Positions 8,098-64,000 of a DNA stretch of 64,000 bases are shown piece after piece (the first letter of the stretch is position 1; every line of letters begins with the position of its first letter). The notes beneath the pieces were generated by a model. It saw only the letters and a list, made by a program, of their open reading frames with translations, did not search any database and was not told where the DNA came from. Made by a program: the position numbers and the translations under genes. The DNA is from Mustelus asterias. Its lineage: Eukaryota. The stretch lies in the NCBI RefSeq assembly GCF_964213995.1, contig NC_135808.1, positions 23,684,001-23,748,000 of the forward strand, in the 5' to 3' direction.

Positions 8098-11000
8098 CTG
8101 TTAAAGGAGGGAGAGACATTAAAAACTGTTCATTATCAGAGAGACAGAGACTGTGCACAAGATATAGATACAGAGAGAAAGAGACACACACACATACATA
8201 CACACACCATTTGGTTGAGTATATTTGACACAGAATGAACAATGATTCACACATTACACAGAGATACAGATGATGTTTGATGATCAGCTTACTATTTGCA
8301 GGATTGTAGTCGCTCTTCCCTCTCCCTGTAAAACAAGGAATGTTCAGTGAGTGACAAGACTGAGAGAAAATCAGAGACAGAGGCTGGAACTCTCGCTCGC
8401 ACTGAGCCCCGACAACACAATTCTGAACCCTCACTCCCACCACAACCCGAGACCCTCACTTTGCCCTTACCAGTGACCCTCTCTCTGTCCTTAGACCCTC
8501 ACCTGAGACCCTCACTCCCACACTGACCTGAGCCCCTCACAGATACCCTGAGCTCCTCATCCAATCTGAGACTCTTCCCACAATTCTCAGACACTCCCTC
8601 TTTATCATGAGCCCCTTATCCTCCCGATCCCAACCCTGGGGCTCTCCCACCCACTCTGTTTCCCCCCCACATCAACGCGAGACCCACAGCCTGAGCCCCC
8701 CCACCCTGGAATACTCTCCCACAATCCCTCCCCCCAGTGAGGAGCTGCTCTTTTCCCTCCAATTCCTACCTTTCTTGTTGTAGATGACGACAGCCACAAT
8801 GATGAGAGCGATGAGCACGAGGACCCCGACCACAATCCCGACAGTAACAGCAACCTGGGAGTGAGACTTTGGTTCTGTTAGAGAGAGAGAATCAGAGAGA
8901 CTGAGTGAATCAGGGAGAGGGAAAAGTGAGAATCAGAGAGAGAGAATGTACAGAGTGGGAGAGAGAGAGGGAGCTAGCATCGAACAATGAGTGAGGGAGT
9001 GGATGAGAGATAGAGAAAGCTGAGAGAGAAAGAATGAGAGAGTGAATCAGAGTGAGAGAGAGAATCAGGAAACACAGGATATACGACACAGAAACTGGCC
9101 ATTCGGCCCTTCCAGTTGATGCTGGTATTTATGTTCCACTTGAGCCTCCTCCCGTCATTCCTCATCTCATTCGACCATTTTAACTCTATTCCCTTCTCCC
9201 TCGTTTGCTCGTCTATCCTAGGGGATAGACGAGCAAATTGTTCAGTTCAGCCACTCCCTGTGGCAGCGAGCTCCACATTCTCATCACTCTTTGGGTGAAG
9301 AGGTTTCTCATGAATTCCCCATTGGGTTTCTTGTATTGATAGCCACTGGATATGCTCTTCCCACAAGAGGAACACTCTCGGTGTGTCCGCTCTATAAAAA
9401 ACCTTTGAGAATTTTAAAGTCCTCGATTAGATCAACCCTCAGCCTTCTGTTTTCCCGAGAGCAGAGACACAGCCGGTCAATCCTTTCCTGAGATGTCCAC
9501 CCACTCATTTCTGGAATCATCTCTGTAAATCTTCTCGACACTCTCTCCCCTGACTCTATATCCTTTGTATGAAATGGTGACCGGAACTGCACACGGTCTT
9601 TAAATGTGGTCTAACCAAGGTTTGGCAATAACGTCCCTGCTTTACAATTCTATCCCTCGAGAAGTAAAACCTGGTTTTCGATTGTATTTTGTTTATTGTC
9701 TAACCTGTAACTCTATGTTTACTGATTGGTGTATTTGTACATCAAGATCCCTTTCTTCCTCAACCCTCCCTATTCATCGTTAACTGAAAAATACCTCACG
9801 TTTATCTGTGCTGAACTTTATTCACCAACTATTTGCTGAAGTTTATTCATGTCCTATTAATTTATGATGTGGAGATGCCGGCGTTGGACTGGGGTAAACA
9901 CAGTAAGAAGTTTAACAACACCAGGTTAAAGTCCAACAGGTTTATTTGGTAGCAAAAGCCACACAAGCTTTCGAGGCTCTGAGCCCCTTCTTCAGGTGAG
10001 TGGGAATTCTGTTCACAAACAGAACTTATAAGACACAGACTCAATTTACATGAATAATGGTTGGAATGCGAATACTTACAACTAATCCAGTCTTTAAGAA
10101 ACAAAACAATGGGAGTGGAGAGAGCATCAAGACAGGCTAAAAAGATGTGTATTGTCTCCAGACAAGACAGCCAGTGAAACTCTGCAGGTCCACGCAACTG
10201 TGGGAGTTACAAATAGTGTGACATAAATTCTGATTCTAGGATCGCATGATAAAGACTCAGGAGGAAAAAAGCAGAAATATTTATGTGAAATAGTGTGACA
10301 TAAACCCAATATCCCGGTTGAGGCCGTCCTTGTGTGTGCGGAACCTGGCTATCAGTTTCTGCTCAGCGACTCTGCGCTGTCGTGTGTCGCGAAGGCCGCC
10401 TTGGAGAACGCTTACCCGAATATCAGAGGCCGAATGCCCGTGACCGCTGAAGTGCTCCCCAACAGGAGGAGAACAGTCTTGCCTGGTGATTGTCGAGCGG
10501 TGTTCATTCATCCGTTGTCGCAGCGTCTGCATAGTTTCCCCAATGTACCATGCCTCGGGACATCCTTTCTTGCAGCGTATCAGGTAGACAACGTTGGCCG
10601 AGTTGCAAGAGTATGTACCGTGTACCTGGTGGATGGTGTTCTCACGTGAGATGATGGCATCTGTGTCAATGATCCGGCACGTCTTGCAGAGGTTGCTGTG
10701 GCAGGGTTGTGTGGTGTCTTGGTCACTGTTCTCCTGAAGGCTGGGTAGTTTGCTGCGGACAATGGTCTGTTTGAGGTTGTGCGGTTGTTTGAAGGCAAGA
10801 AGTGGGGGTGTGGGGATGGCCTTGGCGAGATGTTCGTCTTCATCAATGACATGTTGAAGGCTCCGGAGGAGATGCCCTAGCTTCTCCGCTCCGGGGAAGT
10901 ACTGGACAACGAAGGGTACTCTGTCCACTGTGTCCCGTGTTTGTCTTCTGAGGAGGTCGGTGCGGTTTTTCGCTGTGGCGCGTTGGAACTGTTGATCAAT

Positions 11001-14000: not shown

Positions 14001-17000
14001 ACAACGAAGGGTACTCTGTCCACTGTGTCCCGTGTTTGTCTTCTGAGGAGGTCGGTGCGGTTTTTTGCTGTGGCGCGTTGGAACTGTTGATCAATGAGTC
14101 TAGCGCCATATCCTGTTCTTATGAGGGCATCTTTCAGCGTCTGGAGGTGTCTGTTGCGATCCCGGCCTCGACCGGGATATTGGGTTCATGTCACACTATC
14201 TGTAACCCCCACAGTTGCGTGGACCTGCAGAGTTTCACTGGCTGTCTTGTCTGGAGACAATACACATCTTTTTAGCCTGTCTTGATGCTCTCTCCACTCC
14301 CATTGTTTTGTTTCTTAAAGACTGGATTAGTTGTAAGTATTCGCATTCCAACCATTATTCATGTAAATTGAGTCTGTGTCTTTATAAGTTCTGTTTGTGA
14401 ACAGAATTCCCACTCACCTGAAGAAGGGGCTTAGAGCCTCGAAAGCTTGTGTGGCTTTTGCTACCAAATAAACCTGTTGGACTTTAACCTGGTGTTGTTA
14501 GACTTCTTACTGTGTTTACCCCAGTCCAACGCCGGCATCTCCACATCATAATGTAATATCCCATGTTACACTATATCATGTTGTACTGTAATTTCCCAGG
14601 ATACATCAGGCCCTGTTATACTGTAATATCCCAGGATACACAAACAACAGTCATAGTTTAATATCCCAGGATACTCTGGGCTCTGTCATATTGTAATCCC
14701 AGGATACACTGCTGCCCGTGCAAAATATCCCAGAATGCACTGGGTCTTGTTGTACAATAATATCTCTGGACACACTGGGCTCTGTCATACTCTAATATCC
14801 CAATTAAACCAGGCCCTTGTGCACAGTAACATCCGAGGATACACTTGGCCTTGTCCCGACTGTAATATCGCAGGAAACACTGGGCCCTGACCAACTAAAG
14901 GGTCTCATGATACACAGCGCCCTGTCCCACTGTAATGTCCAATAACGCAATGGGTCCTGTACGCCCAGTTATTTCCCAGGATGCACTGGGCCCGGTCAAG
15001 CTCTAATATCCCAAGGTACACCCGGCCTTATCCATCTTGTAATATCCCAGAAGACACTGGATCCTGTTGCTCTGTAATACAGCAGGATACAGTGGGGTAT
15101 GTTTCATGTCAAATCCATGGACACACAATTATTTCCCTCGAATGGTGGTGCCAAGATATACAACGCATTGAAGATTAATATTTATTTCCCTCTCTGTATC
15201 TTGGGCCTCAGGCTGTCCTGGGCTGACAGCTCAGCACTGACCCTCACTCCTGTGATCCTGGTCTGAGGCTGGGTCCTCTCTCACAGTGAGAAACAGTCTT
15301 ACCGTAAATCACCACCAGTGTCTCATTCATCCCGCTGTGTTCCACCCGACAGGAATACACGGCCTGGTCCTCTGGATCAAACTCTACCCATTTCCGGATC
15401 TGGTAGGTGCTGTCGTGATTGGGTAAGATCCCAGTGGACAGAGTCTCATCAATCACCACTCCGTCTCTCCACAGATTCACCTCGATGGCTTGAGGGTAAA
15501 ACCCGGTGACGGCACAGGACAGCCGGTTAGAATCACCCAGACGGGTAAAGGACACGACAGGGGCAACTGAGAGAGAAAGAAAGAGCAGTCAGGACAGGAA
15601 CCTCGAGATAGAGAGTCCCGGCATCACCCCCTTCACCGACTCTCACCCCCCCTCACTCACCGACTCTCACCCCCCCTCACTCACCGACTCTCACTCCCCC
15701 CTCTTCACCGACTCTCACTCCCCCCTCACTCACCGACTCTCACTCCCCCCTCACTCACCAATTCTCACTCCCCCCTCACTCATCGACTCTCACTCCCCCC
15801 CTCATTCACCGACTCTCACTCCCCCCCTCACTCACCGACTCTCAATTCTCTCTGTCCGTACTCCAGGTATTTTCTCAGCCACTCAACACACTCCACCTCC
15901 AGGTAATGTTTCCATTGCTTGCTATTGGCCATGTTCCTGTCTAAATTGTTTTTGATGATCTCTCCCCAGGGGACCGGGGTCACCCACACCATGTGATCCT
16001 TGTCGAAGCTGATAAAATCATCTCCGTCCCACCCAAACTGGTTGAATCCACTCGTGGTCCCATCATCCCTCAGGTCACAGCCAGTCATCAGCTGGTAGAC
16101 ATGGATCCCTGTGGATCAGAAACACAAACAGACAATCAGAGACAGTCCCAATGGGCGATCCCAACTGCACAGCCAATCAGAGCCAGCCTCAATCCCTCCA
16201 CACATTCACAGCCAATCACATTTCCTGTCACATCTCCAATCGCAGCCAATCAACCTCTGGCCCCCGGTTCCTGATCCACTCTGGGTTTCTCCTCATTCCC
16301 ACCTGGATCCCCGGGTGCTGGGAGAGTGAGCACTCACCTCCTGTCTGGTTGGTGCGGGTCATGAAGCGCGGAATAGTAAGTTTGGAGTACATCTCCTGCT
16401 TCTGTGTGAGAATCTTCTTCCGCTCCCAGGCTGCCCGACCCTCGCTCTCCACCATCCACTGCTCCCGGGGGATCAGCTCCCTCCGATCGCTGTCGTACAC
16501 AACAAACTGGACACCGTCCACATAACCGACAGCCACAAACTCCGGGAAATCCGGGATCGGAGTCATTCCCGTGAAGAAATACCGGAGAGAGTGAGAGCCT
16601 GAAATATAGAGAGAGAGAATTCAGAATAGACACCCGAAAAACACCAACACACTCACACACACACACACACACACAGATCAGGGCATGAACCCCAAAACAC
16701 TGATTCCAAACCGAGAGCAAGACCTCCACCCAGCCTGGCATTGCCTCTCTCACACCCCATCACTCACTGACCCAGGGTTAATGCCCCAGTACCCAGCCTG
16801 GCATTGCCCCTCTCACACCCCATCACTCACTGACCCAGGGTTAATGCCCCAGTACCCAGCCTGGCATTGCCCCTCTAACACCCCATCACTCACTGACCCA
16901 GGGTTAATGCCCCAGTACCCAGCCTGGCATTGCCCCTCTCACACCCCATCACTCACCTGCAGACAGCTCTCCACACAGAAGGACCAGCTCTATCAGTCCA

Positions 17001-17020
17001 ATCATTGCTGCTTCCCTCAT
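8051..17020 (-). CDS. MHC class I heavy chain gene A (UAA-related, non-classical-type), 7 coding exons
   Basis: Exons 17020-16957, 16598-16338, 16108-15836, 15566-15303, 8874-8770, 8325-8293, 8097-8051. All have GT-AG boundaries and phase 1, and the spliced frame is open to TGA at 8051. Confidence 0.93.
8293..8325 (-). CDS. Gene A exon 6 (cytoplasmic, Tyr-containing)
   Basis: GRGKSDYNPAN; 33 bp; AG/GT flanks; paralogous exon at 42455-42487. Confidence 0.85.
8770..8874 (-). CDS. Gene A exon 5 (transmembrane)
   Basis: EPKSHSQVAVTVGIVVGVLVLIALIIVAVVIYNKK; 105 bp; cag/gtagga boundaries. Confidence 0.9.
9085..9860 (-). mobile_element. Degenerate CR1 3' fragment in intron 4, shared by A, B and C
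   Basis: Homologous to about 29755-31140(-) and 40145-41460(+); RRFTEMIPEM. Confidence 0.75.
10281..12960 (-). pseudogene. Penelope RT / GIY-YIG endonuclease ORF with one frameshift near 11985
   Basis: DVSALYTSIP, GTAMGTKFAP and YIDD RT motifs; NVVYLIRC...WYIGET GIY-YIG; N-terminal ORF 11923-12996 leaves frame after NNEEHYR. Confidence 0.9.
14415..14451 (+). ncRNA. Minimal type I hammerhead ribozyme motif in Penelope pLTR
   Basis: CAC-CUGAAGA-stemII-GAAAGCUU-GUG. Copies at about 9962-9998(-), 13057-13093(-), 17298-17334(-), 17380-17416(+), 53122-53158(+). Confidence 0.7.
15303..15566 (-). CDS. Gene A exon 4 (alpha3 Ig C1 domain)
   Basis: LSCAVTGFYP...W...YSCRVEH C1-set motifs; 264 bp. Confidence 0.95.
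15627..15840 (-). repeat. About 25-bp minisatellite in gene A intron 3
   Basis: (CTCACTCACCGACTCTCACTCCCCCC)n, about 8 units. Confidence 0.9.
15836..16108 (-). CDS. Gene A exon 3 (alpha2 domain)
   Basis: GIHVYQLMTGCDL...FGWDGDDFISFD...YLEVECVEWLRKYLEYG; 273 bp; conserved Cys pair. Confidence 0.95.
16338..16598 (-). CDS. Gene A exon 2 (alpha1 domain)
   Basis: GSHSLRYFFTGMTPIPDFPEFVAVGYVDG...RTNQTGG; 261 bp; N86 glycosylation sequon. Confidence 0.95.
16728..16956 (-). repeat. 63-bp tandem repeat at the start of intron 1 (gene A, about 3.6 copies)
   Basis: Unit GTGAGTGATGGGGTGTGAGAGGGGCAATGCCAGGCTGGGTACTGGGGCATTAACCCTGGGTCA. Confidence 0.9.
16957..17020 (-). CDS. Gene A exon 1 (signal peptide)
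   Basis: MREAAMIGLIELVLLCGELSA followed by G|gtgagt donor. Confidence 0.88.
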
Positions 17021-27995: not shown

Positions 27996-29450
27996 TGTTA
28001 AATCCTGTGGGAGTGACACAGCTCAGTGACCAACTTCAGGGAAAACACTTGGGAATTCCGACTTCCTTAAGGAAATTGAGCAGCTTAGCAGAGGCTGTCC
28101 AGGGTGAGATGTTTCCGGATGTCTCTTCACCTCAACACCCACAATGTCTCCACCCTCAGACTGTACAGGAGCAGCCGTCTCCAGAAGGCCAGTCTCAAAG
28201 CTCAGTGTTGGATTGGATGAGCTGCTCTTTAGTGACGATACAGCGAGAGACAGACACTGAGCTCACATCCCACCCACCAGATTGTACAGCTAAATCCAGC
28301 AGGAATATCCCAGTTAGAAGGATCAACTCTGCATATTCTGAGCTCCTGCAACAGAATGCTGGACTCTTCACTCCCTCCACAATCTAAACCCCTCAACTCC
28401 AGCCCTGACCATAGACCTTCATTCCAGCCCTGACCACAGACTCTCACTCCAGCGCTGATCTGAGACCCTCACTCCCACCCTGACTCGAGACCCTCATTCA
28501 TGCTCTGACTTGAGACCCTCACTCCCGCCCTGAACCGAAACCCTCATTCCCACACTGGGGTGAGACCCTCAGGTTGGAATTGTCCCGTCCCGCCTGCCAT
28601 GGGAATTGTAGCGGGCAGGGGAGGACAATGCAAAGGTCTGTTGATCTTGGGTGGGATTTTACGGTCCTGGGGTGAGCCCGGCCAGAAACTCCCACGCTCA
28701 ATCGCACTCCGAGGCGAGAGCCTCACTCTCACTCTGACGCAAGGCGCTCACACTGGCCCGAGACCCTCACTCCCACTGGCCCGAGACCCTCACTCCCACT
28801 GGCCTGATACCCTCACTCCCACTGGCCCGAGACCCTCACTCCCACTGGCCTGAGACCCTCACTCCCACTGGCCTGAGACCCTCACTCCTACTGGCCTGAG
28901 ACCCTCACTCCCACTGGCCTGAGACCCTCACTCCCACTGGCCTGAGACCCTCACTCCCACTGGCCCGAGACCCTCACTCCCACTGGCCTGAGACCCTCAC
29001 TCCCACTGGCCTGGGACTCTCACTCCCACTGGCCTGAGACCCTCACTCCCACTGGCCTGGGACCCTCACTCCCACTGGCCTGGGACCCTCACTCCCACAT
29101 TGACCCAAAACCCTTACAGATATCCTGAACTCCTCATTCAATCTGAGACCCTTCCCACAATTCTGTGACACTCTCCCTTTATCATGAGCCCCTCACCCTC
29201 CCTATCCCAACCCTGCGACTCTCCCACCCACTCTGTGACCCCCAGACCAACCTGAGACCCACAGCCTGAGCCACCCCCACCCTGGAATACTCTCCCACAA
29301 TCCCTCCCCCCAGTGAGGAGCTGCTCTTTTCCCTCCAATTCCTACCTTTCTTGTTGTCGATGACGACAGCCACAATGATGAGAGCGATGAGCACGAGGAC
29401 CCCGACCACAATCCCGACAGTAACAGCAACCTGGGAGCGAGACTTTGGTT
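27996..29450 (-). pseudogene. MHC class I gene fragment C: orphan TM exon (29346-29450) plus 3'UTR copy (about 27996-28325)
   Basis: TM exon encodes the same peptide as gene B exon 5. The 3'UTR matches about 7690-8020. Exons 1-4, 6 and 7 were not found nearby on this strand. Confidence 0.8.
28750..29098 (+). repeat. 23-bp minisatellite in the intron 5 homologue of fragment C
   Basis: (GAGACCCTCACTCCCACTGGCCT)n; degenerate versions at about 8425-8545 and 42275-42352. Confidence 0.92.
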
Positions 29451-29754
29451 CTGTTAGAGAGAGAGAATCAGAGAGACTGAGTGAATCAGGGAGAGGGAGA
29501 GAATGTGAGAGGAAGAGAGAGAGAGAGAATGAGGGAGAGAGATGAGAGAGGGAGAGAACTTTGAGAGAATGTGAGAGACTGAGTGAATCAGGGAGAGGGA
29601 TAAGTGTACATCAGAGGGAGACAGAGTGGGAGAGAATAGGAGACAGTGGGAGAGATAGGAAGAGAAGAGTGGAAGAGAATACGAGAGCGATGGAGAGAGA
29701 ATGAATCAGAAAGAAAGAGAAAGAGTGAGAGAGAGAATTAGAAAACACAGGATA

Positions 29755-35292: not shown

Positions 35293-35356
35293 ATGAGGGA
35301 AGCAGCAATGATTGGACTGATAGAGCTGGTCCTTCTGTGTGGAGAGGTGTCTGCAG
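35293..35356 (+). CDS. Gene B exon 1 (signal peptide)
   Basis: MREAAMIGLIELVLLCGEVSA then G|gtgagt. Confidence 0.88.
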
Positions 35357-38300
35357 GTGAGTGATGGGGTGTGAGAGGGGCAATGCCAGGCTGGGTACTG
35401 GGGCATTAACCCTGGTTAAGAAGTCTCAGAAGACCAGGTTAAAGTCCAACAGGTTTTGTTTGGTGGCACAAACCACTAGCTTTCGGAGTGCTGCCCCTTC
35501 ATCAGGTGAGTCTGGGTCAGAGTGATGGGGTGTGAGAGGGGCAATGCCAGACTGGGTACTGGAGCATTAACCCTGGGTCAGTGAGTGATGGGGTGTGAGA
35601 GGGGCAATGCCAGGCTGGGTACTGGAGCATTAACCCTGGGTCAGTGAGTGATGGGGTGTGAGAGGGGCAATGCCAGGCTGGGTACTGGGGCATTAACCCT
35701 GGGTCAGTGAGTGATGGGGTGTGAGAGGGGCAATGTCAGGCTGGGTACTGGGTTTCTTAAAGGAGGGAAACTGGGATGTGAGGGAACTGAGAGCAGGGAT
35801 GTGGGATTGGAGATCGAGGAGAGAGACAGAGAGAGGGAGAGGTTGTAGGATTACAGGAACAGGAGGGGAATAATCTAAACTCCATTTTCTGCATCCCCAC
35901 AAAAATCCATCTCAATTTTGAAAGCTGCAATTGATCCACAACAGCTGCAGCTTCTTGCGGGAAAGAGGATTTCAGATTTCCACAACCATTTTGGTGAGGA
36001 GGTTCCTGGCTAAAGACAGCAGGCAGCAACCAGGAAAGAGAGAGTGAGTGTAGATGAATAGCAGAGACTGGTTAAAGGCTTCAGCAACAGTGCACGATTA
36101 GAGAGAGAGAGAGCAGCAGAAGTATAGTGTCATAGAATCCCTGCAGTGCAAAAGAAGGCTATTTAGCCCATCGAATCTGCACTGAGAACAATCCCACCTG
36201 GGCCCTATTCCCGTAACCCCATGTATTCATCCTACTAATCATCTTGACACTAAGGGGTAATTTAGCATGGCCCATCAACCGAACCCGCACATCTTTTGAA
36301 TGTGGGAAGAAACCGGAGAACCTGGAGGAAACCCACGCGGACACGGGGAGAACGTACAAACTCCACGCAGGCAGTCACCCGAGGCCGGAATTGAACCCGG
36401 GTCCCTGGTGCTATGAGGCAACAGTGCTAAACACTCTGCCACCGTGCTACCCATATAATCAGACCCAGTAAAAGACTCCCAGCAGCAATGCATGAATAGC
36501 GAGAGAGTGTGTGTAAAGGAATAGCACAGACCGAGTTAGGGACTCCAGCAGCAATGCACAATTGGAGAGTGATGGGGAGGGAGGAGAAATCAGACCTGGC
36601 TGGAGACTCCAGCATTTCTACAATTCCTTAGCTGATGTCCTGAGGAAGATTCTGGATGACTGGAGTCTTTTCAGCCTAAGTGACTTCAACAATGTGTTGG
36701 GACAGACAGTAATCATGGCCATTGTGCCTCGGTCATCACGGTGTGGGCAAGATCATCGATAATTATATTTGACCGAATGCATGGGACTTCTGTGCTGAGG
36801 ACTCTCAGGGGAACTGTATTGTGGAAGCACATCACTGCACCAATACCTCTGGTGGGCCTGTTGTGCGAGTCAGACAGTTATATCCAGCTTCTAAGCACCT
36901 TCTGGAGCTTTGCCATCTGAATGAACTCTCCATCACCAACACTTACCCCCAGGGCAAACATTGCCTCAAAGTATCGTGGCATCGCTCAAGGTGTAACCCT
37001 GGCACCAACTAGACCTGCGTAATCAAGAGGAGACACAATCTGCCCAGCTTTCTCCACACCCACACCAAGCACAGAGCAGATTGTGATAGTGCCCACTGTC
37101 CTGTCCGTCGCAGTGTGAAACTGCATCCCTGAATAATTCACAGTCCCAAACACCATGGCCTGTCGCGTGTTAATGGGTTCGTACCCTGATGTCCCTCTCT
37201 GTGTGGGTGCTGATGGTTAGGGGTTCAAACCCTGATATCTGTGTGTCAGCGTTTTTAGGGTGCATATCCTGAATTTCTCTCCCTCTCTGTTTTTCAGGCT
37301 CTCACTCTCTGCGGTATTTCCTCTCGGGAATGACCCTGGTCCCCGGTTTCCCAGAGTTTGTAGCTGTCGGTTATGTGGACGATGTCCAGTTTGTTGTGTA
37401 CGACAGTGATCGGAGGGAACTAATCCCCCGGGAGCAGTGGATGGTGGAGAGCGAGGGGCTTGAGTCCTGGGAGCGGAAGAAGATGCTTGTACAGGAGCAG
37501 GAACGGTATTCCAAAGCCGATATTCCGCTCTTCATGTCTCGGGCCAACCAGTCAGGAGGTGAGTGCTCACTCTCCCACAACTCTGGGATCAAGTTGGTCA
37601 ATGTGGCTCCTCCCAGTGTAGTTGGCATTGATTGGCTGTGTGTGTGGTGCTCCCAAGTGACACTGTCTCTGATTGGTTGTTTGTGTTTCTGATCCACAGG
37701 GATCCATGTCTACCAGACGATGACTGGCTGTGACCTGAGGGATGATGGGACCACGAGTGGATTCAACCAGTTTGGGTGGGACGGACAAGATTTTATCAGC
37801 TTTGACAAGGATCACATGGTGTGGGTGACCCCGATCACATGGGGAGAGATCATCAAAAACAATTTGGACAGGGACATAGCCAACAGCAAGGGATGGAAAA
37901 GTTACCTAGAGGGAGAGTGTATCGAGTGGCTGAAGAAATATCTGGAGTATGGACAGGGAGAACTGAGAGTTGGTAAGTGAGAGGCGAGATGCCCGGGACT
38001 CTCTATCTCAAGGTTCCTGTACTGACTCCTCTTTCTTTCTCTCTCAGTTGCCCCCGTCGTGTCCTTTACCCGCCTGGGTGATTCTAACCAGCTGTCCTGT
38101 GCCGTCACCGGGTTTTACCCTCAAGCCATCGAGGTGAATCTGTGGAGAGACGGAGTGGTGATTGATGAGACTCTGTCCAGTGGGATCTTACCCAATCACG
38201 ACAGCACCTACCAGATCCGGAAATGGGTAGAGTTTGATCCAGAGGACCAGGCCGAGTATTCCTGTCGGGTGGAACACAGCGGGATGAAGGAGACACTGGT

Positions 38301-41300
38301 GGTGATTTACGGTAAGACTGTTTCTCACTGCTAGAGAGGACACAGCCTCAGGCCAGGATCACAAGAGGGAGGGTCAGTGCTGAGCCTGAGACCCAGGATA
38401 CAGAGAATGGGAAATAAATATTAATCTTCAATACTTTATTTATCATGGCGCTACCTTTAGAGGACAGTAATTGTGTGTCCAGGGATTTAATGTGAAATGT
38501 GCCCCTATTATTTGGCTACTAATTCAAACTCTTTGCAAACATTTCAGTTTAGTCGGACAAAGGACAGAAGTCGAGTCTATTCCTCTTAATAATCTATTTA
38601 ACACTTTAAGTACCAAACTCAAACTTACAACAGTTGCAACATTTTAACTCTTTTTGTGGACATTAATTCTTTAACTGAACATTAATTCTAATTCCTTAAC
38701 TGCAAACAGATATTCTAATCCTTTAACTGGAAATAGATATGACCTGGTTTAGAGCAAAATGTCTGTTCCCGATGTAGAACTGTCCTCAGCGTCTTTCTCT
38801 GAAGATGTTCTGCAGGGTACACTTCTTGCGATGGTTGATCTCTGGAGTTATTGCTGGAAACAAAGGGCTGACGTGTGCCTTTACCCCCAAAACTGTTCTC
38901 ACTTTCCAGAAAGTTCTGTAACACCCAGCCAATGGTGTAACCGGGAACTGATCATGTTGCTCGACCAAGCCAATGAATTACTTGTAACCGATTCCACAAT
39001 GCTCACTCAAGCCTGCATGCAGGACACATAGCTTATCCTCTGTCGGTGCCATCAGGTCGAACTCAAAGTAAACAACTTCCCATATTTGGTCAACACAGGA
39101 AGCGGAACAAAGAAACCTACAGCACAGGAACAGGCCCTTCAACCCTCCAAGCCTGCACTGACCATGCTGCCCAACTTAACTAAAACCCCCTACCCTTCTG
39201 GGGACCATATCCCTCTATTCACAAAGAACAGTGTCAGGTCACAGTTCACCGGGCAGACCACGTCAAGAACAGCTTTACGACCTGCATCTGTTTTTAAATA
39301 TAAGTTGACCAAAAATCTCAGCATGCTTAACCCTCAGCCAGAATCCCACTTATCGCCATTATACTTGTTAAAATCATTATTGCAGTCATTCTTTATCTGT
39401 CTGCACCCCATTGTATCCTGGGATATTACAGGTGAAAGGGCACAGAGTATCCTGGGATATTACGGTGCAACAGAATCCAGTGTATCCTGGGAAATTATAG
39501 TACGTCACACTGCAGTGTATCCTGGGAAATTACAGGAGGGGTAGGGCCCAGAGTATCCTGGGACATTACAGTGCAACACAATCCAGTCGATCCTGGTGTA
39601 TTACAGTGCACCAGGATCCAGTGACTCGTGAGATATTTCAGGAGGGATGGGGCTTGGTGTATCCTGGAATATTACAGCATGACAGGGCCCAGTGCATCCT
39701 GGGAAATAACAGGAAGCACAGGAACCATTGTATCGATGGATATTACAGTAAGACAGGGCTGTGTATCATGAGCTATTATAGTTGGTCAGGGTGCAGTATA
39801 TCTGGGATATTACAGCCTGACAGGACATGGAGTATCCTGGGATGTTACAGTATGACAGGATGCAGTGTATCCTGGGATATTACTGGATGACGGGACTCAA
39901 TGTCTGTTGGAATTTTAGAGAAGGGACAGGGCCTGGTGTGCTTGGGATTTCAGAGGAGGGAGAGGACCTGGTGTATTGGGATATTGCAGGATGGCAGGGC
40001 CCAGTGTCTGCTGTGATATTACAACCTGAGAGGACCCAGTGTGCCCTGGGATGTTATATTAGGACAAGGCCCAGTGTATCCTGGGATATTGCAGTAGGAT
40101 AGGACCCAGTGCATCCTGGGAGTTTACTTCAGTCAGCTTCAGATCAGAGTTCAGAAAAATAACTCCTTCTATTGGAGAGAATTCATGAAAATCTAGAAAT
40201 CAAAAAATATAACAATGAATAGTCAGCATGGATATTGAAATGGAAAATCTTGCTTTTCTCTACTGAGTGGATTTTTTGAGGATGTAACAGAGGGAGGAGA
40301 CAATGTAATAGATATAATTTAATATGATTTTTCAAATGTAATCGATAACATAACTCATGGTAGATTAATGAATCGGGTCAAAGAATGTGGATTTAGACGA
40401 TAAGTGACAGAATGGATTGCTCGTTGACTTTGAGACAGAAAGCAGAGAGTGTGAGTAAAGGGAGTTATTCAGAGTGACGGAAGGTGTTCCACAAGGATCA
40501 GTGCTGGGATTACTGCTCTTCATGCTTTACACTCACTGATTTGGACATTGGAATCAAAATAAAATTGACCAATTTGCAGATGACACCAAATTGGGGGAAT
40601 TATTTAATACTAAGGAGAACTTCAAGAAATTAATAGGACGTTAATAAACTTGTCGAATGAGCAAATAATTGGTGAATGGAGTTCAGCACAGATGAATAAG
40701 ACGTAGTTTTCTATTAAGTGACCTCCCGATACATCCTTATTACGAGGAAGGTGCAGGTCTGGATGAGGTTGAGGAGCAAAGGTGAACAAATACACCAATT
40801 AGACACAGGTTAGACAAGGCCATAAACAAACCAAACGGAAAACCAGGTTTCATTTCTTGATGGATAGGATTGTCAAATATGGACGTTATTCGTAAACCTG
40901 TATGAAACCTACATTATAGCACATTTAGAGTACCATGTGCAGTTCCAGTCACCATCTCATACAAAGGATATAGAGTCAGGGGAGAGAGTGTAGAGAAGAT
41001 TTACAGAGATGATTCCAGAAATGAGTGGGTGGACATCTCAGGAAAGGATTGACCGGCTGGGTCTCTGCTCTCGGGAAAACAGAAGGCTGAGAGTTGATCT
41101 AATCGAGGTCTTTAAATTTATGAAAGATGTTTTATAGATCAGACACATGGAGAATGTTTCCTCTTGTGGAAAGATCATAACAAGGTCATCAATACAAGAC
41201 AGTCACCAAAAAATCCAATGGGCAATTCAGGAGAAACCTCTTTACCCAGAGTGGTGAGAATGTGAGCTCACTACCACAGGGAGTGGCTGAACTGAACAGT

Positions 41301-42698
41301 ATAGTTTAAGGGGAAGATAGACAAGCAAATGAGGGAGAAGGGAGTAGAGTTAAAATGGTTGTTTTAGATGAGGAAAGATGGGAGGAGGCTCAAGTGGAAC
41401 ATAAATACCAGCATCAACTGGATGGGCTGAATGGCTGGTTTCTGTGTTGTATATCCTGTGTTTCCTGATTCTCTCTCTGTGATTCATTCTGTCTCATTTT
41501 TCTTTCCCTTTTTATGGGCGGCACAGTAACACAGGGGTTAGCACTGCTACCTCACAGCGCCAGGGACACAGGTTCGATTCCCGGCTTTGTCACTGTCTGG
41601 ATGGAGTTTGCATGTTCTCTCCGTGTCTGCGTGTGTTTCCTTCGGGTGCTCCGGTTTCTTCCCACAGTTCAAAAATCCACTGGTTAGGTGGATTGGCCGT
41701 GCTAAATTGCCCCTTAGTGTCAGGGGGGTTTGCAGGTTAAATACATGTTACAGGGATAGGGCATAGATGGGATTGTTGTCAGTGCAGACTTGATGAGCCG
41801 AATGGCCTCCGTCTGCACTGTAGGGATTCTATGATTCACTCTCAGATTCTCTGCCTCTCTCATTCTCTTTCTCGCTCTCTGACTCTCACTTTTCCCTCTC
41901 CCTGATTCACTCAGTCTCTCTGATTCTCTCTCTCTAACAGAACCAAAGTCTCGCTCCCAGGTTGCTGTTACTGTCGGGATTGTGGTTGGGGTCCTCGTGC
42001 TCATCGCTCTCATCATTGTGGCTGTCGTCATCGACAACAAGAAAGGTAGGAATTGGGGGGAAAAGAGCAGCTTCTCACTGGGGGGAGGGATTGTGGGAGA
42101 GTATTCCAGGGTGGGGGTGGCTCAGGCTGTGGGTCTCGGGTTGCTGTGGGGGGGGAAACAGAGTGGGTGGGAGAGTCGCAGGGTTGGGATCGGGAGGGTA
42201 AGGGGCTCAAGATAAAGAGGGAGTGTCTGTGAATTGTGGGAAGGGTCTCAGATTGCAGATGGAGTTCAGGGTATCTGTGAGGGTCTCAGGTCAGAGTAAG
42301 GGTCCAGGGTCAGGGTGGGAGTGAGGGTCCAGGGTCAGGGTGGGAGTGAGGGATCAGAATTGTGTTGTCGGGGCTCAGTGCGAGTGAGAGTTCCAGCCTC
42401 TGTCTCTGATTTTCTCTCAGTCTCGTCACTCACTGAACATTCCTTGTTTCACAGGGAGAGGGAAGAGCGACTACAGTCCTACAAAGAGTAAGCTGATCAT
42501 CAAACATCATCTGTATCTCTGTGTAATGTGTGAATCATTGTTCATTCTGTGTATGTGTGTGTGTCTCTTTCTCTCTGTATCTATATCTTGTGCACAGTCT
42601 CTATCTCTCTGATAATGAACAGTTTTTAAAACCTCTCCTTCTTTTTAACAGCTTCTGATGGTAGGAATTCCTCATCCTGCTCCTCATCGCGTTCCTGA
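35293..42698 (+). CDS. MHC class I heavy chain gene B (close paralogue of gene A), 7 coding exons
   Basis: Exons 35293-35356, 37298-37558, 37700-37972, 38048-38311, 41941-42045, 42455-42487, 42652-42698. Exon lengths match gene A, GT-AG boundaries, open frame. Confidence 0.93.
35357..35752 (+). repeat. 63-bp intron 1 tandem repeat (gene B, about 5 copies)
   Basis: Same unit; gene D has about 2 copies at 53454-53573. Confidence 0.9.
35417..35511 (-). mobile_element. Penelope pLTR remnant in gene B intron 1 repeat
   Basis: CCAGGTTAAAGTCCAACAGG...AGCTTTCGGAG...TTCATCAGGTGAG. Confidence 0.75.
36130..36452 (-). mobile_element. HE1-like SINE
   Basis: tRNA-like head and CR1-like tail. Confidence 0.8.
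36640..37170 (+). mobile_element. Degenerate LINE endonuclease fragment (RTE-like)
   Basis: LSDFNNVLG and LLELCHLNELSITNTYPQGKHCLKVSWH resemble APE-domain motifs. Confidence 0.55.
37298..37558 (+). CDS. Gene B exon 2 (alpha1)
   Basis: GSHSLRYFLSGMTLVPGFPEFVAVGYVDD...RANQSGG. Confidence 0.95.
37700..37972 (+). CDS. Gene B exon 3 (alpha2)
   Basis: GIHVYQTMTGCDLRDDG...YLEGECIEWLKKYLEYG. Confidence 0.95.
38048..38311 (+). CDS. Gene B exon 4 (alpha3)
   Basis: LSCAVTGFYP...YSCRVEH. Confidence 0.95.
39405..40120 (+). repeat. Degenerate approximately 34-bp satellite in intron 4
   Basis: CAGTGTATCCTGGGATATTACAG core; inverted copies at 14550-15095 and 31137-31265. Confidence 0.8.
40145..41460 (+). 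mobile_element. Degenerate CR1 fragment in gene B intron 4
   Basis: TTTGCAGATGACACCAAA (FADDTK) and other CR1 motifs. Confidence 0.75.
41515..41833 (+). mobile_element. HE1-like SINE
   Basis: GGGCGGCAC...GGTTCGATTCCC...GGGATTCTATG. Confidence 0.82.
41941..42045 (+). CDS. Gene B exon 5 (transmembrane)
   Basis: EPKSRSQVAVTVGIVVGVLVLIALIIVAVVIDNKK. Confidence 0.9.
42455..42487 (+). CDS. Gene B exon 6 (cytoplasmic)
   Basis: GRGKSDYSPTK; acag/gtaagc boundaries. Confidence 0.85.
42652..42698 (+). CDS. Gene B exon 7 (cytoplasmic tail, stop)
   Basis: TSDGRNSSSCSSSRS*. Confidence 0.85.
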
Positions 42699-53389: not shown

Positions 53390-53453
53390 ATGAGGGAAGC
53401 AGCAATGATTGGACTGATAGTGCTGGTCCTTCTGTGTGGAGAGGTGTCTGCAG
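53390..53453 (+). CDS. Gene D exon 1 (signal peptide)
   Basis: MREAAMIGLIVLVLLCGEVSA then G|gtgagt. Confidence 0.85.
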
Positions 53454-59400: not shown

Positions 59401-62400
59401 TTGGTTTGACGTTTTAAGTTTCCTTTTGACTTTGTTTTTGGTTCGGGCTGTTCCCCCCTTCCTTTTGGGGAGCCGCCCCTTTTACTTTGTCCCTAAGTTA
59501 ATTTGAGTTCGTTTACTTGATTGGTGCCGAAAGAGCTATCTTATGGATACCTCTCTGGAGAGGGAGCATGCGGTGTCCACGGGCGCGATTGACGCCTTCC
59601 GCGACCGCTGGGCGCCGCAGGGGCTGGGGTGTATTATCGACGCCGATAATCACCTTTTGGTTTGACGTTTTAAGTTTCCTTTCGACTTTGTTTTTGGTTC
59701 GGGCTGTTCCCCCCTTCCTTTTGGGGAGCCGCCCCTTTTACTTTGTCCCTAAGTTAATTTGAGTTCGTTTATTACGTTGGTACCCGAAAGAGCTACCTTA
59801 TGGATACCCATCTGGCCACGAACTCCTTTAAGTGAACAGTCCAAAGTTGTTCCCAGCTTCTCTCTGTCCACATTTCCCCTGTTTCTGTGGGAGATTTGAG
59901 GGGGTCCAGTTGGGACACGGAGTCCCTGATCAGGGTAGAGTGAGCGATGTGGACAGGAGCTGACAGATTTTGAGGAGGCAGGAGGGAGATCGAGGAGCAT
60001 TGGAAGCCTCGGTCTTTGTTGGGGTAGGTGCGTGGGGATTGTGTTAAATGTGTTTCCAGAAGGTGAAGTTGCATGAGATCAGAGGTGAGCTGGCAAGGTG
60101 GATACAAAACTGGCTCGATAAAAGAAGACAGAAGGTAGCAGTGGAAGGGTGCGTTTCTGAATGGAGGGCTGTGACAAGTGGCATTCCTCAGGGATCAGTG
60201 CTGGAATCTTTGCTGTTTGTAATACATATAAATGATTTGGAGGAAAATGTAACGGGATTGATTAGTAAGGTTGCGGACGACACAAAGGTTGGTGGATTTG
60301 CGGATAGCGATGAGGACCATCAGAGGATACAGCAGGATATAGATTAGTTGAAGACTTGGGCGGAGAGGTGGCAGATGGAGTTTAATCCGGACAAATATGA
60401 GGTAATGCATTTTGGAAGGTCTAATACAGATAGGAAATATACAGTGAATGGCAGAACCCTTAAGAGTATTGATAGGCAAAGGGATCTGGCTGTACAGGTA
60501 CACAGAACACTGAAAGTGACAATGCAGGTGGAGAAGGTAGTCAAGAAGACATACGGCATGCTTGCCTTCATCAGCCGGGGTATTGAGTTTAAAAATTGGC
60601 AAGTCATGTTGCAGCTTTATAGAACCTTAGTTAGGCCGCACTTGGAATATAGAGTTCAATTCTGATCGCCACACTATCAGAAGGATGTAGAGGCTTTGGA
60701 GAGGGTACACAAAAGATTTACCAGGATGTTACCTGGTATGGAGGGAGTTAGCTATGAGGAGAGGTTGGAGAAACTTCGTTTGTTCTCACTGGAGCGACGG
60801 AGGTTGAGGGGAGACGTGATAGAAGTCTACAAGATTCTGAGAGGCAATGGCAGAGTGGATAGTCAGAAGTTTTTTCCCAGGGTGGAAGAGTCAATGACTG
60901 GGGAGCATAGGTTTAAGGTGTGAGGGGCAAGGTTTAAAGGAGATGGCCAAGGCAGATTTTTTACACAGAGAGTAGTGGGTGCTTGGAACCCGTTGCTGGG
61001 GGAGGTAGTGGAAGTGGATACAGTAGTGACTTTTAAGGGGCGTCTGGACAAATCCATGAATAGAATGGGAATAGAGGGATATGGTCCCCGGAAGGTAGGG
61101 GGTTTTAGTTAAGTCAGGCAGCACGGTCGGTGCAGGCTTGGAGGGCCGAAAGGCCAGTTCCTGTGCTGTAATTTTCTTTGTTCTTTGTTCTCTGGGTGTT
61201 GATGTTTTGGGGTTCACACCTGATGTCTCTCTCTCTGGGCGTTGGTGTTTTGGGGTTCACACCCTGATGTCTCTCTCTCTCTCTGGGTGTTGGTGTTTTG
61301 GGGTTCACACCCTGATGTCTCTCTCTCTCTGGGTGTTGGTGTTTTGGGGTTCACACCCTGATGTCTCTCTCTCTGGGTGTTGGTGTTTTGGGGTTCACAC
61401 CCTGATGTCTCTCTCTCTCTGGGTGTTGGTGTTTTGGGGTTCACACCCTGGTTCTCTCTCTCTCTGTGTTTCAGGTTCTCACTCTCTCCGATATTTGGCC
61501 ACTGTTATGACTCCGGTCTCTGGTCTCCCAGAGTTTGTGATTGTCGGGTTTGTGGACGATGTGCAGTTTTTTATGTATGACAGTGACTTGAAGGAGTTGG
61601 CCGGCCGTGGGCAGTGGTATATGGAGAACAAGAGGCCCAATTTCTGGATGCGGAAGACAGTGCTTGCACGGGAGAAGGAGAAACATTTTAAATTCTACAT
61701 TCAGAGCCTCATGTCCCGGACCAACCAGTCAGACGGTGAGTCCCTGCGCTCCCACCATCTGTCCTTCGAGAGAGGTTGGAAGCAGAATGAGATCCGAGAA
61801 CCAGGGTCAGGGGAAAAGTTTCTCCATCGCTTCGAGCATGGAGCGGCAGCAATGGGGAGCACCCTTTAAATACAAAGAAATATTCTTCCTAATTAGCTGA
61901 TTGTACAAGGTTTGGTTTATAATTTAAGTTTATTTATTGGTGTCACAAGCAGGCTTACATTAACACTGTAATGAAGTTACTGTGAAAACCCCCTCGTTGC
62001 CACACTCCGGCAGCTGTTCGATACACTGAGGGAGAGGATAAATATGTGGGGTTACGGGAATATGGTGCAGATTGTGGTCGGCGCAGACTCGATGGGCCAA
62101 ATGGCCAATGCACCTAACCAGCACGTCTTTCTGACTGTGGGAGGAAACCAGAGCACCCGGAGGCAGACACGGGGAAATCGTACAAACTCCACGCAGACAG
62201 TGACCCGAGGCCGGAATCAAACCCAGGCCCCTGACGCTGTGAGGCAGCAGTGCTAACCACTGTGCCACCGTGGGGGCACAGATTTCAGGTTTTGGGAAGG
62301 AGATGCAGGAAAATCCTCACTACAAAGTGCTTGGCAGACACCTGGGATTGTTGGCCTGTGAGGGCGATGGAAGCAGGGACGATCAATGACTTCAAAAGGA

Positions 62401-63443
62401 AATTGAATCGGACATCAAAGTAATAGATAGTCAGCACTGTGGGATAAGCGGGGGGGGGGATGACACTGACCAGTTTGCAATATAGAGAGCCAGCATGGAC
62501 TCAAAGGAATGAATAAATGACGACGATAATGATTGGGAATTTGGTGGATGAAGGTCTCCTTAAAATATTTCAATTGGGAGTCTAGTAGTGTGGAGTTGCA
62601 GACAAATTAAATCTTAGTCCGAGACCTGTAAATTTACACAGCTGCTGCTTTGGGTTTCCTTCAATTAATAGACATGGTTCAGGGGGGTCCTTTAAATATA
62701 GGTTGGGTTCGCGGATCATTTACATGGGGTGGCACAGTGGTTAGCACTGCTGCCTCACAGCGCCAGAGTTCAATTCCAGCCTCAGGTCTGTGTGGAGTTT
62801 GTACATTCTCCTCGTGTCTGCGTGGGTTTCCTCCGGGTGCTCCCGTTTCCTCCCACAGACCAAGGGTGTGCAGGTTAGGTTGATTGGCCATTCTAAATTG
62901 ACCCGAGTGTCAGGGAATTAGCAGGATAAATATGTGGGGGTACGGGAATAGGGCCTGGGTGGGATTGTGGCCGGTGCAGACTCGATGGGCTGAATGGCCT
63001 CCTTCTGCACTGTAGGGATTCTATGACATGTTAAGGAGTCTTATAAATACACATATTGCGGTCCAGGGGTCCATTAACACTGGCTTCCGAGGTGATATCT
63101 GATTAACTGTGTGGTGGGGTCACTCAGTCGAACTGAGCCTCATTGGTCGTATACGTCTGATTGACAGGGATCCACTTCTTCCAGATGATAACTGGCTGTG
63201 ACCTGGCTGATGATTCGATGACGAGTGGCTTCTCACAGTTCGGCTGGGACGGGCAAGATTTCATGACATTTGATAAAGATGAGCAGGTATGGCTGACACC
63301 GGTACCGTGGGGTGAGAACACCATGACGTGGTGGCAACAAATCAGGGCCTGGGATAATCAGCAGTGGAAGTTTTACCTGGAGCAGGAGTGCATTGAATGG
63401 CTGAAGATCTACTTGGAATATGGACAGCAACAGCTGGGAGTCG
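53390..63443 (+). CDS. MHC class I heavy chain gene D (divergent non-classical-type), exons 1-3; runs off the window
   Basis: Exons 53390-53453, 61475-61735, 63168-63443 splice in frame. The window ends in intron 3, just before the expected alpha3 acceptor. Linking exon 1 across the 8 kb intron is inferred. Confidence 0.85.
54572..54912 (-). mobile_element. HE1-like SINE
   Basis: Same family. Confidence 0.78.
55470..57320 (+). mobile_element. Degenerate CR1 LINE
   Basis: KSPGPDGIYP, DFTKAFDKVPH, WQMEFNPDKC; many frameshifts. Confidence 0.9.
57707..58400. mobile_element. Two HE1-like SINEs tail to tail (57707-58015 plus; 58122-58400 minus)
   Basis: Same family, opposite orientations. Confidence 0.78.
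59281..59807 (+). mobile_element. Two tandem 256-bp 3' ends of a Tx1-like (L1 clade) element
   Basis: SLEREHAVSTGAIDAFRDRWAPQG resembles the Tx1 ORF2 C-terminus; TA(T/C)CTTATGGATAC occurs three times; inverted 3'UTR relative at about 58970-59115. Confidence 0.65.
60060..61180 (+). mobile_element. CR1 3' fragment
   Basis: GIPQGSVL, ADDTKVGG, RPHLEY. Confidence 0.9.
61190..61465 (+). repeat. About 44-48-bp tandem repeat before the gene D exon 2 acceptor
   Basis: ((CT)nGGGTGTTGGTGTTTTGGGGTTCACACCCTGATGT), about 6 copies. Confidence 0.9.
61475..61735 (+). CDS. Gene D exon 2 (alpha1)
   Basis: GSHSLRYLATVMTPVSGLPEFVIVGFVDD...RTNQSDG; 261 bp. Confidence 0.93.
61925..63027. mobile_element. SINEs in gene D intron 2 (61925-62272 minus; 62727-63027 plus)
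   Basis: A/B boxes and SINE body. Confidence 0.78.
63168..63443 (+). CDS. Gene D exon 3 (alpha2)
   Basis: GIHFFQMITGCDLADD...YLEQECIEWLKIYLEYG; 276 bp, one codon longer than A/B. Confidence 0.93.
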
Positions 63444-63958
63444 GTGAGTGAGGGGGGAGCGAGAGTCGGTGAGTGAGGGGGGGAGTGAGAGTCGGTGAGT
63501 GAGGGGGGGAGTGAGAGTCGGTGAGTGAGGGGGGAGTGAGAGTCGGTGAGTGAGGGGGGAGTGAGAGTCGGTGAGTGAGGGGGGAGTGAGAGTCGGTGAG
63601 TGAGGGGGGAGTGAGAGTCGGTGAGTGAGGGGGGAGTGAGAGTCGGTGAGTGAGGGGGGAGTGAGAGTCGGTGAGTGAGGGGGGGGGTGAGAATCGGTGA
63701 GTGAGGGGGGAGTGAGAGTTGGTGAGTGAGGGGGGGAGTGGGAGTCGGTGAGTGTGGGGGGGAGTGAGAGTCGGTGAGTGTGGGGGGGAGTGAGAGTCGG
63801 TGAGTGAGGGGGGAGTGAGAGTCGGTGAGTGAAGGGGGAGTGAGAGTCAGTGAGTGAGGGGGGAGTGAGAGTCGGTGAGTGAGGGGGGAGTGAGAGTCGG
63901 TGAGTGAGGGGGGGGAGTGAGAGTATGTGAGCGAGGGGGGAGTGAGAGTCGGTGAAGG
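63438..63958 (+). repeat. About 25-bp minisatellite in gene D intron 3
   Basis: (GAGAGTCGGTGAGTGAGGGGGGAGT)n, about 20 units. Confidence 0.95.
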
Positions 63959-64000
63959 GGGTGATGCCAGGACTCTCTATCTCGAGGTTCCTGTACTGAC

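Follow-up and report, generated by a model that had tools for sequence, protein, structure and literature searches.

The analysis presented here concerns gene D, a class I gene of the major histocompatibility complex (MHC) in a stretch of 64,000 nucleotides (the window) of contig NC_135808.1 of Mustelus asterias, a houndshark of the order Carcharhiniformes. Gene D is intact, with seven exons that are all open and have AG/GT ends, and it very probably encodes a nonclassical heavy chain of the shark UBA lineage, belonging to an old sublineage, here termed D-type, whose alpha1 and alpha2 domains were already distinct before the split of houndsharks and carpet sharks and have remained so. These two shark orders separated more than about 200 million years ago. 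Window positions are counted within the 64,000 nucleotides; coordinates given as C8 refer to the whole contig (genome G000) and include the exons that lie beyond the window.

Lineage of gene D

The first-pass annotation, made from the window sequence, had placed gene D on a UAA-like frame, an assignment that has to be replaced by UBA on the basis of our trees and of a published label. In the tree of alpha1 plus alpha2 (52 rows), D lies inside a 41-row clade (100/99) with nurse shark AAC60347, which carries the label UBA in Supplemental File 10 of PMC10751288, and together with five carpet-shark proteins it forms a clade (100/99) that is apart from its own paralogues. These D-type orthologues, obtained by the search across sharks that the same annotation had suggested, come from the zebra shark (P0203), whale shark (P0313), epaulette shark (P0211) and two bamboo sharks (P0315, P0316), and they share with D the WW..I.AW motif and the extra alpha2 residue. 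Their existence rules out recent rapid drift of D and, since non-groove columns alone recover the D-type clade (100/97), convergence of the grooves is ruled out as well; alpha1 alone and alpha2 alone give SH-aLRT values of 96 and 98. Membership in UEA was rejected (the UEA-like L063 is identical to D at 52 of 177 positions, and UEA-like genes are found at C8:32-33.6 Mb). In addition, D groups outside UAA and has six of the eight residues of the full classical set (Y7, Y59, R84, T143, K146, W147, Y159 and Y171), and the UGA-like genes L060 and L061 are far from D in the tree, whose rows include no UFA sequence.

In the alpha3 tree, by contrast, the partners of D are 16 paralogues from its own genome (99/90), the 40-row UBA clade with AAC60347 being supported at 97/95, and a D-type alpha3 clade was rejected (p-AU 0.008). 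The corresponding AU test on the alpha1 plus alpha2 tree (p 0.004) constrains D plus all 16 paralogues, says nothing on D alone and was not used. The leader (21-22 of 22 residues) and the transmembrane exon (36 of 37) of D are likewise identical to those of its neighbours. Because alpha1/alpha2 form a clade with carpet sharks while alpha3 groups with the paralogues, we infer that exons 2 and 3 are old and that the remaining exons have been exchanged with neighbouring genes. Species-specific homogenisation of alpha3 is known in teleost class I, according to the available part of PMC4364491.

UBA is described as an expanded family derived from UAA in the available part of PMC12562908, where UEA is likewise listed as expanded, UDA, UFA and UGA are listed as single-copy genes, and no conserved UBA sublineage appears. 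Supplemental File 10 of PMC10751288 contains 26 class I reference sequences, none of which, on inspection by eye, carries the D-type motifs, and the available part of PMC6523485 added nothing on such a sublineage. No description of it was found in the literature searched, which did not cover the main shark class I papers or the Almeida 2021 thesis, where it may be mentioned; as far as the searched literature goes, D-type is new within the known UBA lineage.

Conservation of the groove

The groove was defined as 40 positions in HLA-A2 numbering, with positions 26, 33, 118, 150a and 160 left out and W152 aligned by hand beside the insertion, as in the HMMER alignment. D and its orthologues are identical at 31-34 of these 40 positions (78-85%) and at 77-82 of the 138 positions elsewhere (56-59%; Fisher p 0.0008-0.026), and 30 of the 40 groove positions are invariant in the six D-type sequences, compared with 67 of the 138 others (p 0.004). 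Ordinary UBA genes behave in the opposite way: in 128 control pairs of houndshark and carpet-shark UBA the mean identity is 50% in the groove and 69% elsewhere, the best groove identity is 72.5%, and no pair has a 15-point groove excess. A wider table of 45 positions, which was misnumbered by one after residue 107, gave a non-significant groove excess (p 0.08-0.16) and was superseded by the 40-position table. The distinctive invariant groove residues of the D-type are A9, F34, F59, K70, F95, M124, T143, W146, I150 and W152, and the reading frames are intact in all six species.

A second copy on the same contig, D' (L005), encodes an alpha1/alpha2 protein identical to that of D. Exons 2 and 3 of the two copies differ by one synonymous change in 531 coding bases, compared with 2.1% in intron 1 (Poisson p 0.00015) and 1.2% in intron 2 (p 0.01), whereas intron 4 is different, alpha3 differs at 6 of 261 bases, and the transmembrane exon of D' matches the variant of this exon in gene C. 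An assembly duplicate is unlikely given these alpha3 differences and introns that differ by 1.2-3.7%; the near identity of exons 2 and 3 fits either purifying selection or recent conversion.

Groove chemistry and modelled structure

The features that had drawn attention to gene D are real: the alpha2 helix ENTMTWWQQIRAWDNQQWKFYL and the alpha1 motif NFWMRK...KHFKFY are both present, alpha1 is identical to that of gene A at 45 of 88 positions (44/87 by BLASTP), and in HLA-A2 numbering D has F59 in place of Y59 as well as W146 and W147, the further tryptophans being W152 and W156. The extra alpha2 residue is also there, as D has 91 codons compared with 90 in genes A and C and exceeds nurse shark UAA by one residue, at position 152. 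Classical dog DLA-88*5 likewise has an insertion of one residue beside W156, which renders its groove shallower without preventing peptide binding (PMC10093629, available part). The proposal of an aromatic-rich groove holds for the total. Among 82 class I sequences, namely D and 81 other rows (3 of 84 were dropped for gaps), D has the largest summed side-chain volume in the groove and is aromatic at 18 of 40 groove positions (median of the other rows 12, with 1/81 reaching 18), and its non-groove aromatics are ordinary (13 vs a median of 12). Several of the residues singled out, however, are common (W60 in 76/81 rows, W147 in 56/81, W156 in 49/81 and F74 in 31/81), and F76, while present in D, is not retained by the orthologues. 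In the F pocket, 7 of 11 positions are aromatic, a number reached by none of the 81 other rows (maximum 6), whereas pockets A, B, C and D are of ordinary volume. Judged by residue counts, the cleft is thus bulky, aromatic and probably narrowed, chiefly at the F end, as had been suggested, but it is not unusually hydrophobic: its mean hydropathy of 0.25 is equalled or exceeded in 22 of 81 rows, compared with 0.77 and 0.96 in the UGA-like genes, and the idea of a CD1-like hydrophobic cleft was not borne out.

Peptide-end anchors were counted at nine positions, including position 123, which we take to be such an anchor. The other eight come from the available part of PMC4364491. D keeps seven of the nine (Y7, R84, F/Y123, T143, W147, Y159 and Y171) and has lost two (Y59F and K146W), and the same number is kept in all six D-type sequences, compared with five each in A and C and zero to eight in 34 other UBA-like rows, only three of which have T143.

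Six loci of the surrounding cluster, L013, L017, L029, L040, L043 and L054 (C8 21.88, 22.65, 23.06, 23.47, 24.36 and 24.67 Mb), form a UBA subfamily (clade 100/100) with 0-1 of nine anchors and a mean hydropathy of 1.3-1.5, the most hydrophobic groove seen, and might be a better lipid-binding candidate than D.

An AlphaFold model of the D ectodomain has the class I fold (pLDDT 91.7, pTM 0.78) and is closest to 6lup_A (TM 0.94; 51% identity), with TM values of 0.91 for chicken YF1 (9eb4_A), 0.88-0.92 for fish and bird classical molecules and 0.83-0.87 for MR1. For the alpha1/alpha2 model (pLDDT 79.5), Z scores are tied among HLA 1tmc (16.2; rmsd 2.5, 154 aligned), HFE (16.1; 3.1, 164), chicken CD1-1 (15.9; 3.0, 159) and FcRn (15.3; 3.0, 154), and H-2Kd, marsupial class I, UGA and ZAG tie as well. 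The two models disagree at the insertion, with a helix break at 146-150 in the ectodomain model and a continuous helix in the alpha1/alpha2 model (pLDDT about 76). Given the ties across HLA, HFE, CD1-1 and FcRn, comparison of modelled backbones does not discriminate the ligand class of D.

Proposed ligand and alternatives

Within a fast-turning UBA cluster, one groove has stayed near constant between two shark orders while its alpha3 was overwritten by neighbours, a combination that marks a fixed ligand together with a fixed receptor. The conserved groove suggests one fixed ligand, and we tentatively favour, short of real confidence, a fixed-ligand role for D, in which a short or invariant ligand of peptide type would be held beneath a lid of aromatic residues. 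The D heavy chain would pair with beta2m, reach the cell surface and present a single peptide-type ligand that is fixed or very restricted. The free amino end of this ligand might lie in a near-normal A pocket (Y7, Y159, W167 and Y171), where Y59F would cost one hydrogen bond, and its carboxylate could be held on R84/T143/W147. The C-terminal half of the groove seems to be crowded by F74, Y77, F95, F116, F123, W146, W147, W152 and W156, which would favour a short or small-side-chain peptide under the tryptophan lid, and the invariant K70 may pair with an acidic group on the ligand. As with teleost typical Z or with HLA-E/Qa-1, which is a conserved display for an invariant receptor, D might then act as a conserved display that such a receptor reads.

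Several points weigh against this proposal. K146 and Y59 are replaced, and Y77 together with W146 could block the C-terminal end altogether. The five orthologues all belong to one order and hence amount to a single deep contrast, recent conversion may be why D and D' are nearly identical, and the groove and pocket position lists are ones that we presume to be appropriate. The 112 profile-search hits (4136 candidates) included UBA proteins of catshark, white shark, basking shark and horn shark but no D-type protein for any of these sharks, in which the D-type lineage may have been lost or be unannotated. In addition, chicken YF1*7.1 binds N-myristoylated peptides according to the available part of PMC12212280 and, with an inferred position mapping, has equivalents of R84, T143, W147 and F123; as a molecule with these F-end anchors holds acyl-peptides, the anchors are no proof of plain peptides.

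It is conceivable, albeit unlikely, that D itself presents an acylated short peptide or lipid like YF1*7.1, with the head group at the F end and the acyl chain lodged in a B pocket that A9, A67 and T99 would open. D shares Y7, I24, G26, Y36, W60, A67, F74, an aromatic residue at 152 and W156 with the YF1 myristate contacts (PMC12212280, available part; presumed offset mapping), and the groove of YF1 is narrow and hydrophobic within a classical architecture (PMC2998441, available part). The TM value of 0.91 between the D model and 9eb4_A is, however, equalled by classical chicken molecules (0.90-0.92), and the B pocket of D is ordinary in volume and hydropathy (31/81 and 45/81 rows as high) and filled by F34 and L45, with K70 where YF1 has G68. 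D moreover retains Y159, W167 and Y171, whereas YF1 is altered at 159 and 167 (by offset). Doubtful, too, is a fixed-ligand shark analogue of MR1 or YF1 that arose independently from the UBA cluster, in which K70 and the lid of W146/W147/W152/W156 would hold a ligand that is modified or not a peptide (metabolite or acyl-peptide) and restrict an innate-like T cell or an invariant receptor, exons 2 and 3 alone being protected from concerted evolution.

A closed or empty groove, with D serving as a receptor ligand or serum-protein binder like FcRn or HFE, would agree with the top-ranking side-chain volume, the aromatic F end (7/11) and the invariant D-type residues outside the groove list (L8, G49, K55, K72, Q131 and Q177). 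We nevertheless consider it rather improbable, as conservation is concentrated at groove positions, the hydrogen-bonding anchors Y7, Y159, Y171, R84 and T143 are retained, and pockets A to D are ordinary in volume. Just as hard to sustain is a convergent MR1 analogue, with a small metabolite caught by K70 inside an aromatic cage. K70 is found in 6/6 D-type and 0/34 other UBA-like rows, within a conserved aromatic-rich groove, and in MR1 an aromatic cradle has the lysine at its base (PMC12058573, available part). K70, however, lies on the helix and not on the floor, D has its aromatic excess at the F end, unlike MR1, whose ligands occupy the A' pocket, and none of the six MR1 ligand residues K43 (the Schiff-base lysine), R9, R94, Y62, W69 and W156 is matched in D (L45, A9, M97, K63, K70 and Y159). 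Finally, it is very improbable that D is merely an old UBA copy without special function, with a groove likeness due to shared ancestry or convergence: UBA clusters turn over fast, with many odd grooves and pseudogenes, and several other sharks gave no D-type hit among the 112, but groove identity exceeds non-groove identity, opposite to all 128 control pairs, the clade recovered from non-groove columns speaks against convergence, and the frames are intact in six species. Judged from these sequence comparisons, the lipid, metabolite and empty-groove readings that the first-pass annotation had put forward appear less likely than before, and a fixed peptide-type ligand is still what we favour.

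Gene structure and chromosomal surroundings

The exons of D and the paralogues used for comparison are listed in Table 1. The exons beyond the window, a disruption of which had been considered, are all intact, and with every exon open pseudogene status is ruled out; the encoded protein has the Pfam domains MHC_I (E 4e-44) and C1-set. The gene is easily overlooked because the public model P0155 (1069 aa) is a fusion of gene C, gene D and the next gene, and among the protein matches D has no separate model of its own; a protein search with a single exon as query gave no match. Two short tandem repeat arrays (window 61200-61470 and 63444-63950) flank exons 2 and 3.

Table 1. Coordinates of gene D, its second copy and two paralogues (window positions unless marked C8)
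Feature	Position	Strand	Remarks
Gene D exon 1, leader peptide	53390..53453	+	ATG 53390, GT donor 53454; tblastn 22/22 to modelled leader in P0155
Gene D exon 2, alpha1	61475..61735	+	Best solved relative 6lup_A (nurse shark class I), E 9e-20; Y7, A9, F34, F59, K70, H73, F74, Y77, R84, N86 glycosylation site
Gene D exon 3, alpha2	63168..63443	+	6lup_A, E 5e-23; C101-C164, F95, F116, F123, T143, W146, W147, W152 and one inserted residue, W156, Y159, W167, Y171
Gene D intron 3, tandem repeat	63444..64000	+	Gene runs on past the window
Gene D alpha3 exon, outside window	C8:23748022-23748285	+	Open, AG/GT ends
Gene D transmembrane exon, outside window	C8:23754730-23754834	+	Open, AG/GT ends
Gene D cytoplasmic exons, outside window	C8:23756685-23756717 and 23758153-23758199 (TGA)	+	Open, AG/GT ends
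D' (L005)	C8:24427601-24430420	-	alpha1/alpha2 protein identical to D
Paralogue A, leader to alpha3	15304..17020	-	Transmembrane exon 8765-8875; ordinary UBA comparison member, 5/9 anchors
Paralogue C, leader to alpha3	35293..38310	+	Transmembrane exon 41940-42050; ordinary UBA, 5/9 anchors

Searching the genome with alpha2 gave 80 matches, all on C8, of which 57 mark 55 class I loci at 21.6-24.75 Mb; 52 of these loci were examined, the other three having internal stops. Full-length alpha3 matches within the cluster are 92-100% identical (84/87 between paralogue C and D), and the alpha1/alpha2 of D occurs at one other locus only (D', 24.43 Mb), the next best matches being 63% (alpha2) and 57% (alpha1) identical. 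The flanks, identified at family level only, are C4-like (A2M-family) matches at 20.30 and 21.07 Mb and RXR-like matches at 26.06-26.11 Mb, which comprise AF1 (weak, E 9e-4) and the ligand-binding domain. Section 9 of PMC10751288 places the multicopy UBA cluster between c4 and rxrb, and the white shark gene list in its supplement has the same order as the C8 cluster. UGA-, UDA- and UEA-like genes are found at C8 31-33.6 Mb and UAA-like genes at 41.6-43.4 Mb, with labels given by eye and one PDB match.

Near-identical blocks occur up to fourfold at C8:22.58-24.75 Mb, spaced about 410-420 kb and 1.2 Mb (L017, L029, L040 and L054 are identical), and are due to recent segmental duplication or partly to the assembly. 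L055 (C8:27973689-27975521, minus strand) is a lone alpha1/alpha2 pair with no alpha3 found in 7.7 kb downstream, possibly truncated or with a long intron. The UAA-like L056 (35.07 Mb), L057 (41.59 Mb), L058 (42.40 Mb) and L059 (43.41 Mb) have two alpha3 types, alpha1 of L057 being frameshifted in the assembly and alpha2 of L059 broken. L060 and L061 (C8:31.05 and 31.15 Mb) are two UGA-like genes, and L060 alpha2 matches 9ch4_A (shark UGA) with E 1.7e-31. Within the window, a transmembrane exon at 29341-29451 (minus strand) has no alpha1-alpha3 of its own there and is a gene remnant, and a reverse-transcriptase-like retroelement frame of 640 codons lies at 603-2522 (plus strand).

Significance and comparison with known systems

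The function of shark nonclassical class I lineages is described as unknown in section 9 of PMC10751288. D is no new molecular kind, but it represents a specific candidate for conserved innate-type antigen presentation in sharks. As a low-copy, concrete target that is present in bamboo sharks, which are kept as laboratory animals, the D-type might help to address whether innate-type presentation of the MR1, HLA-E or Z kind exists in sharks alongside the CD1-like UFA/UGA.

With shark UBA, D shares the clade of AAC60347 (nurse shark) and AAC60348 (horn shark) in both alpha1/alpha2 and alpha3, the alpha3 sequence (67/85 and 74/87 identical), the location in a multicopy cluster between C4-like and RXR-like genes (section 9 of PMC10751288) and an incomplete peptide-end anchor set. 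In ordinary UBA genes the groove diverges faster than the remainder of the domain and mostly has I143, whereas the D-type groove is conserved across orders, with T143, W146, W152 and one inserted residue. Classical UAA of the nurse shark (6LUP) is the closest solved structure and shares 7/9 anchors, but D is identical to it at 13/40 groove positions and 46/87 alpha3 positions and has Y59F and K146W, and the UAA-like genes are 17-20 Mb from D on C8. Shark UFA/UGA (CD1-like; 8GM8, 9CH4) and MR1 are nonclassical molecules with a class I fold, as is D. The UGA-like genes, however, form a separate cluster at C8:31 Mb, are identical to D at 47-50 of 177 positions and keep 5 and 2 anchors with a hydropathy of 0.77-0.96, compared with 7 and 0.25 in D, and the MR1 ligand residues given in the available part of PMC12058573 are absent in D, only Y7 and W167 being matched between D and MR1.

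Chicken YF1*7.1 (MHC-Y), as far as its sources above were available, resembles D in its classical-like frame, multigene nonclassical cluster, narrow groove and F-end anchors, but its N-terminal anchors are changed where D keeps them (offset mapping) and MHC-Y is polymorphic. Teleost typical Z is unrelated, as D nests in UBA and no Z is found in sharks according to the available part of PMC4364491; Z carries Y171F and D instead Y59F and K146W, the more variable domain of Z is its alpha3 whereas the alpha3 of D is homogenised with the D paralogues, and the D-type is much younger. What D and typical Z have in common, by the same source, is a groove conserved between distant species, the retention of most anchors and a putative fixed ligand.

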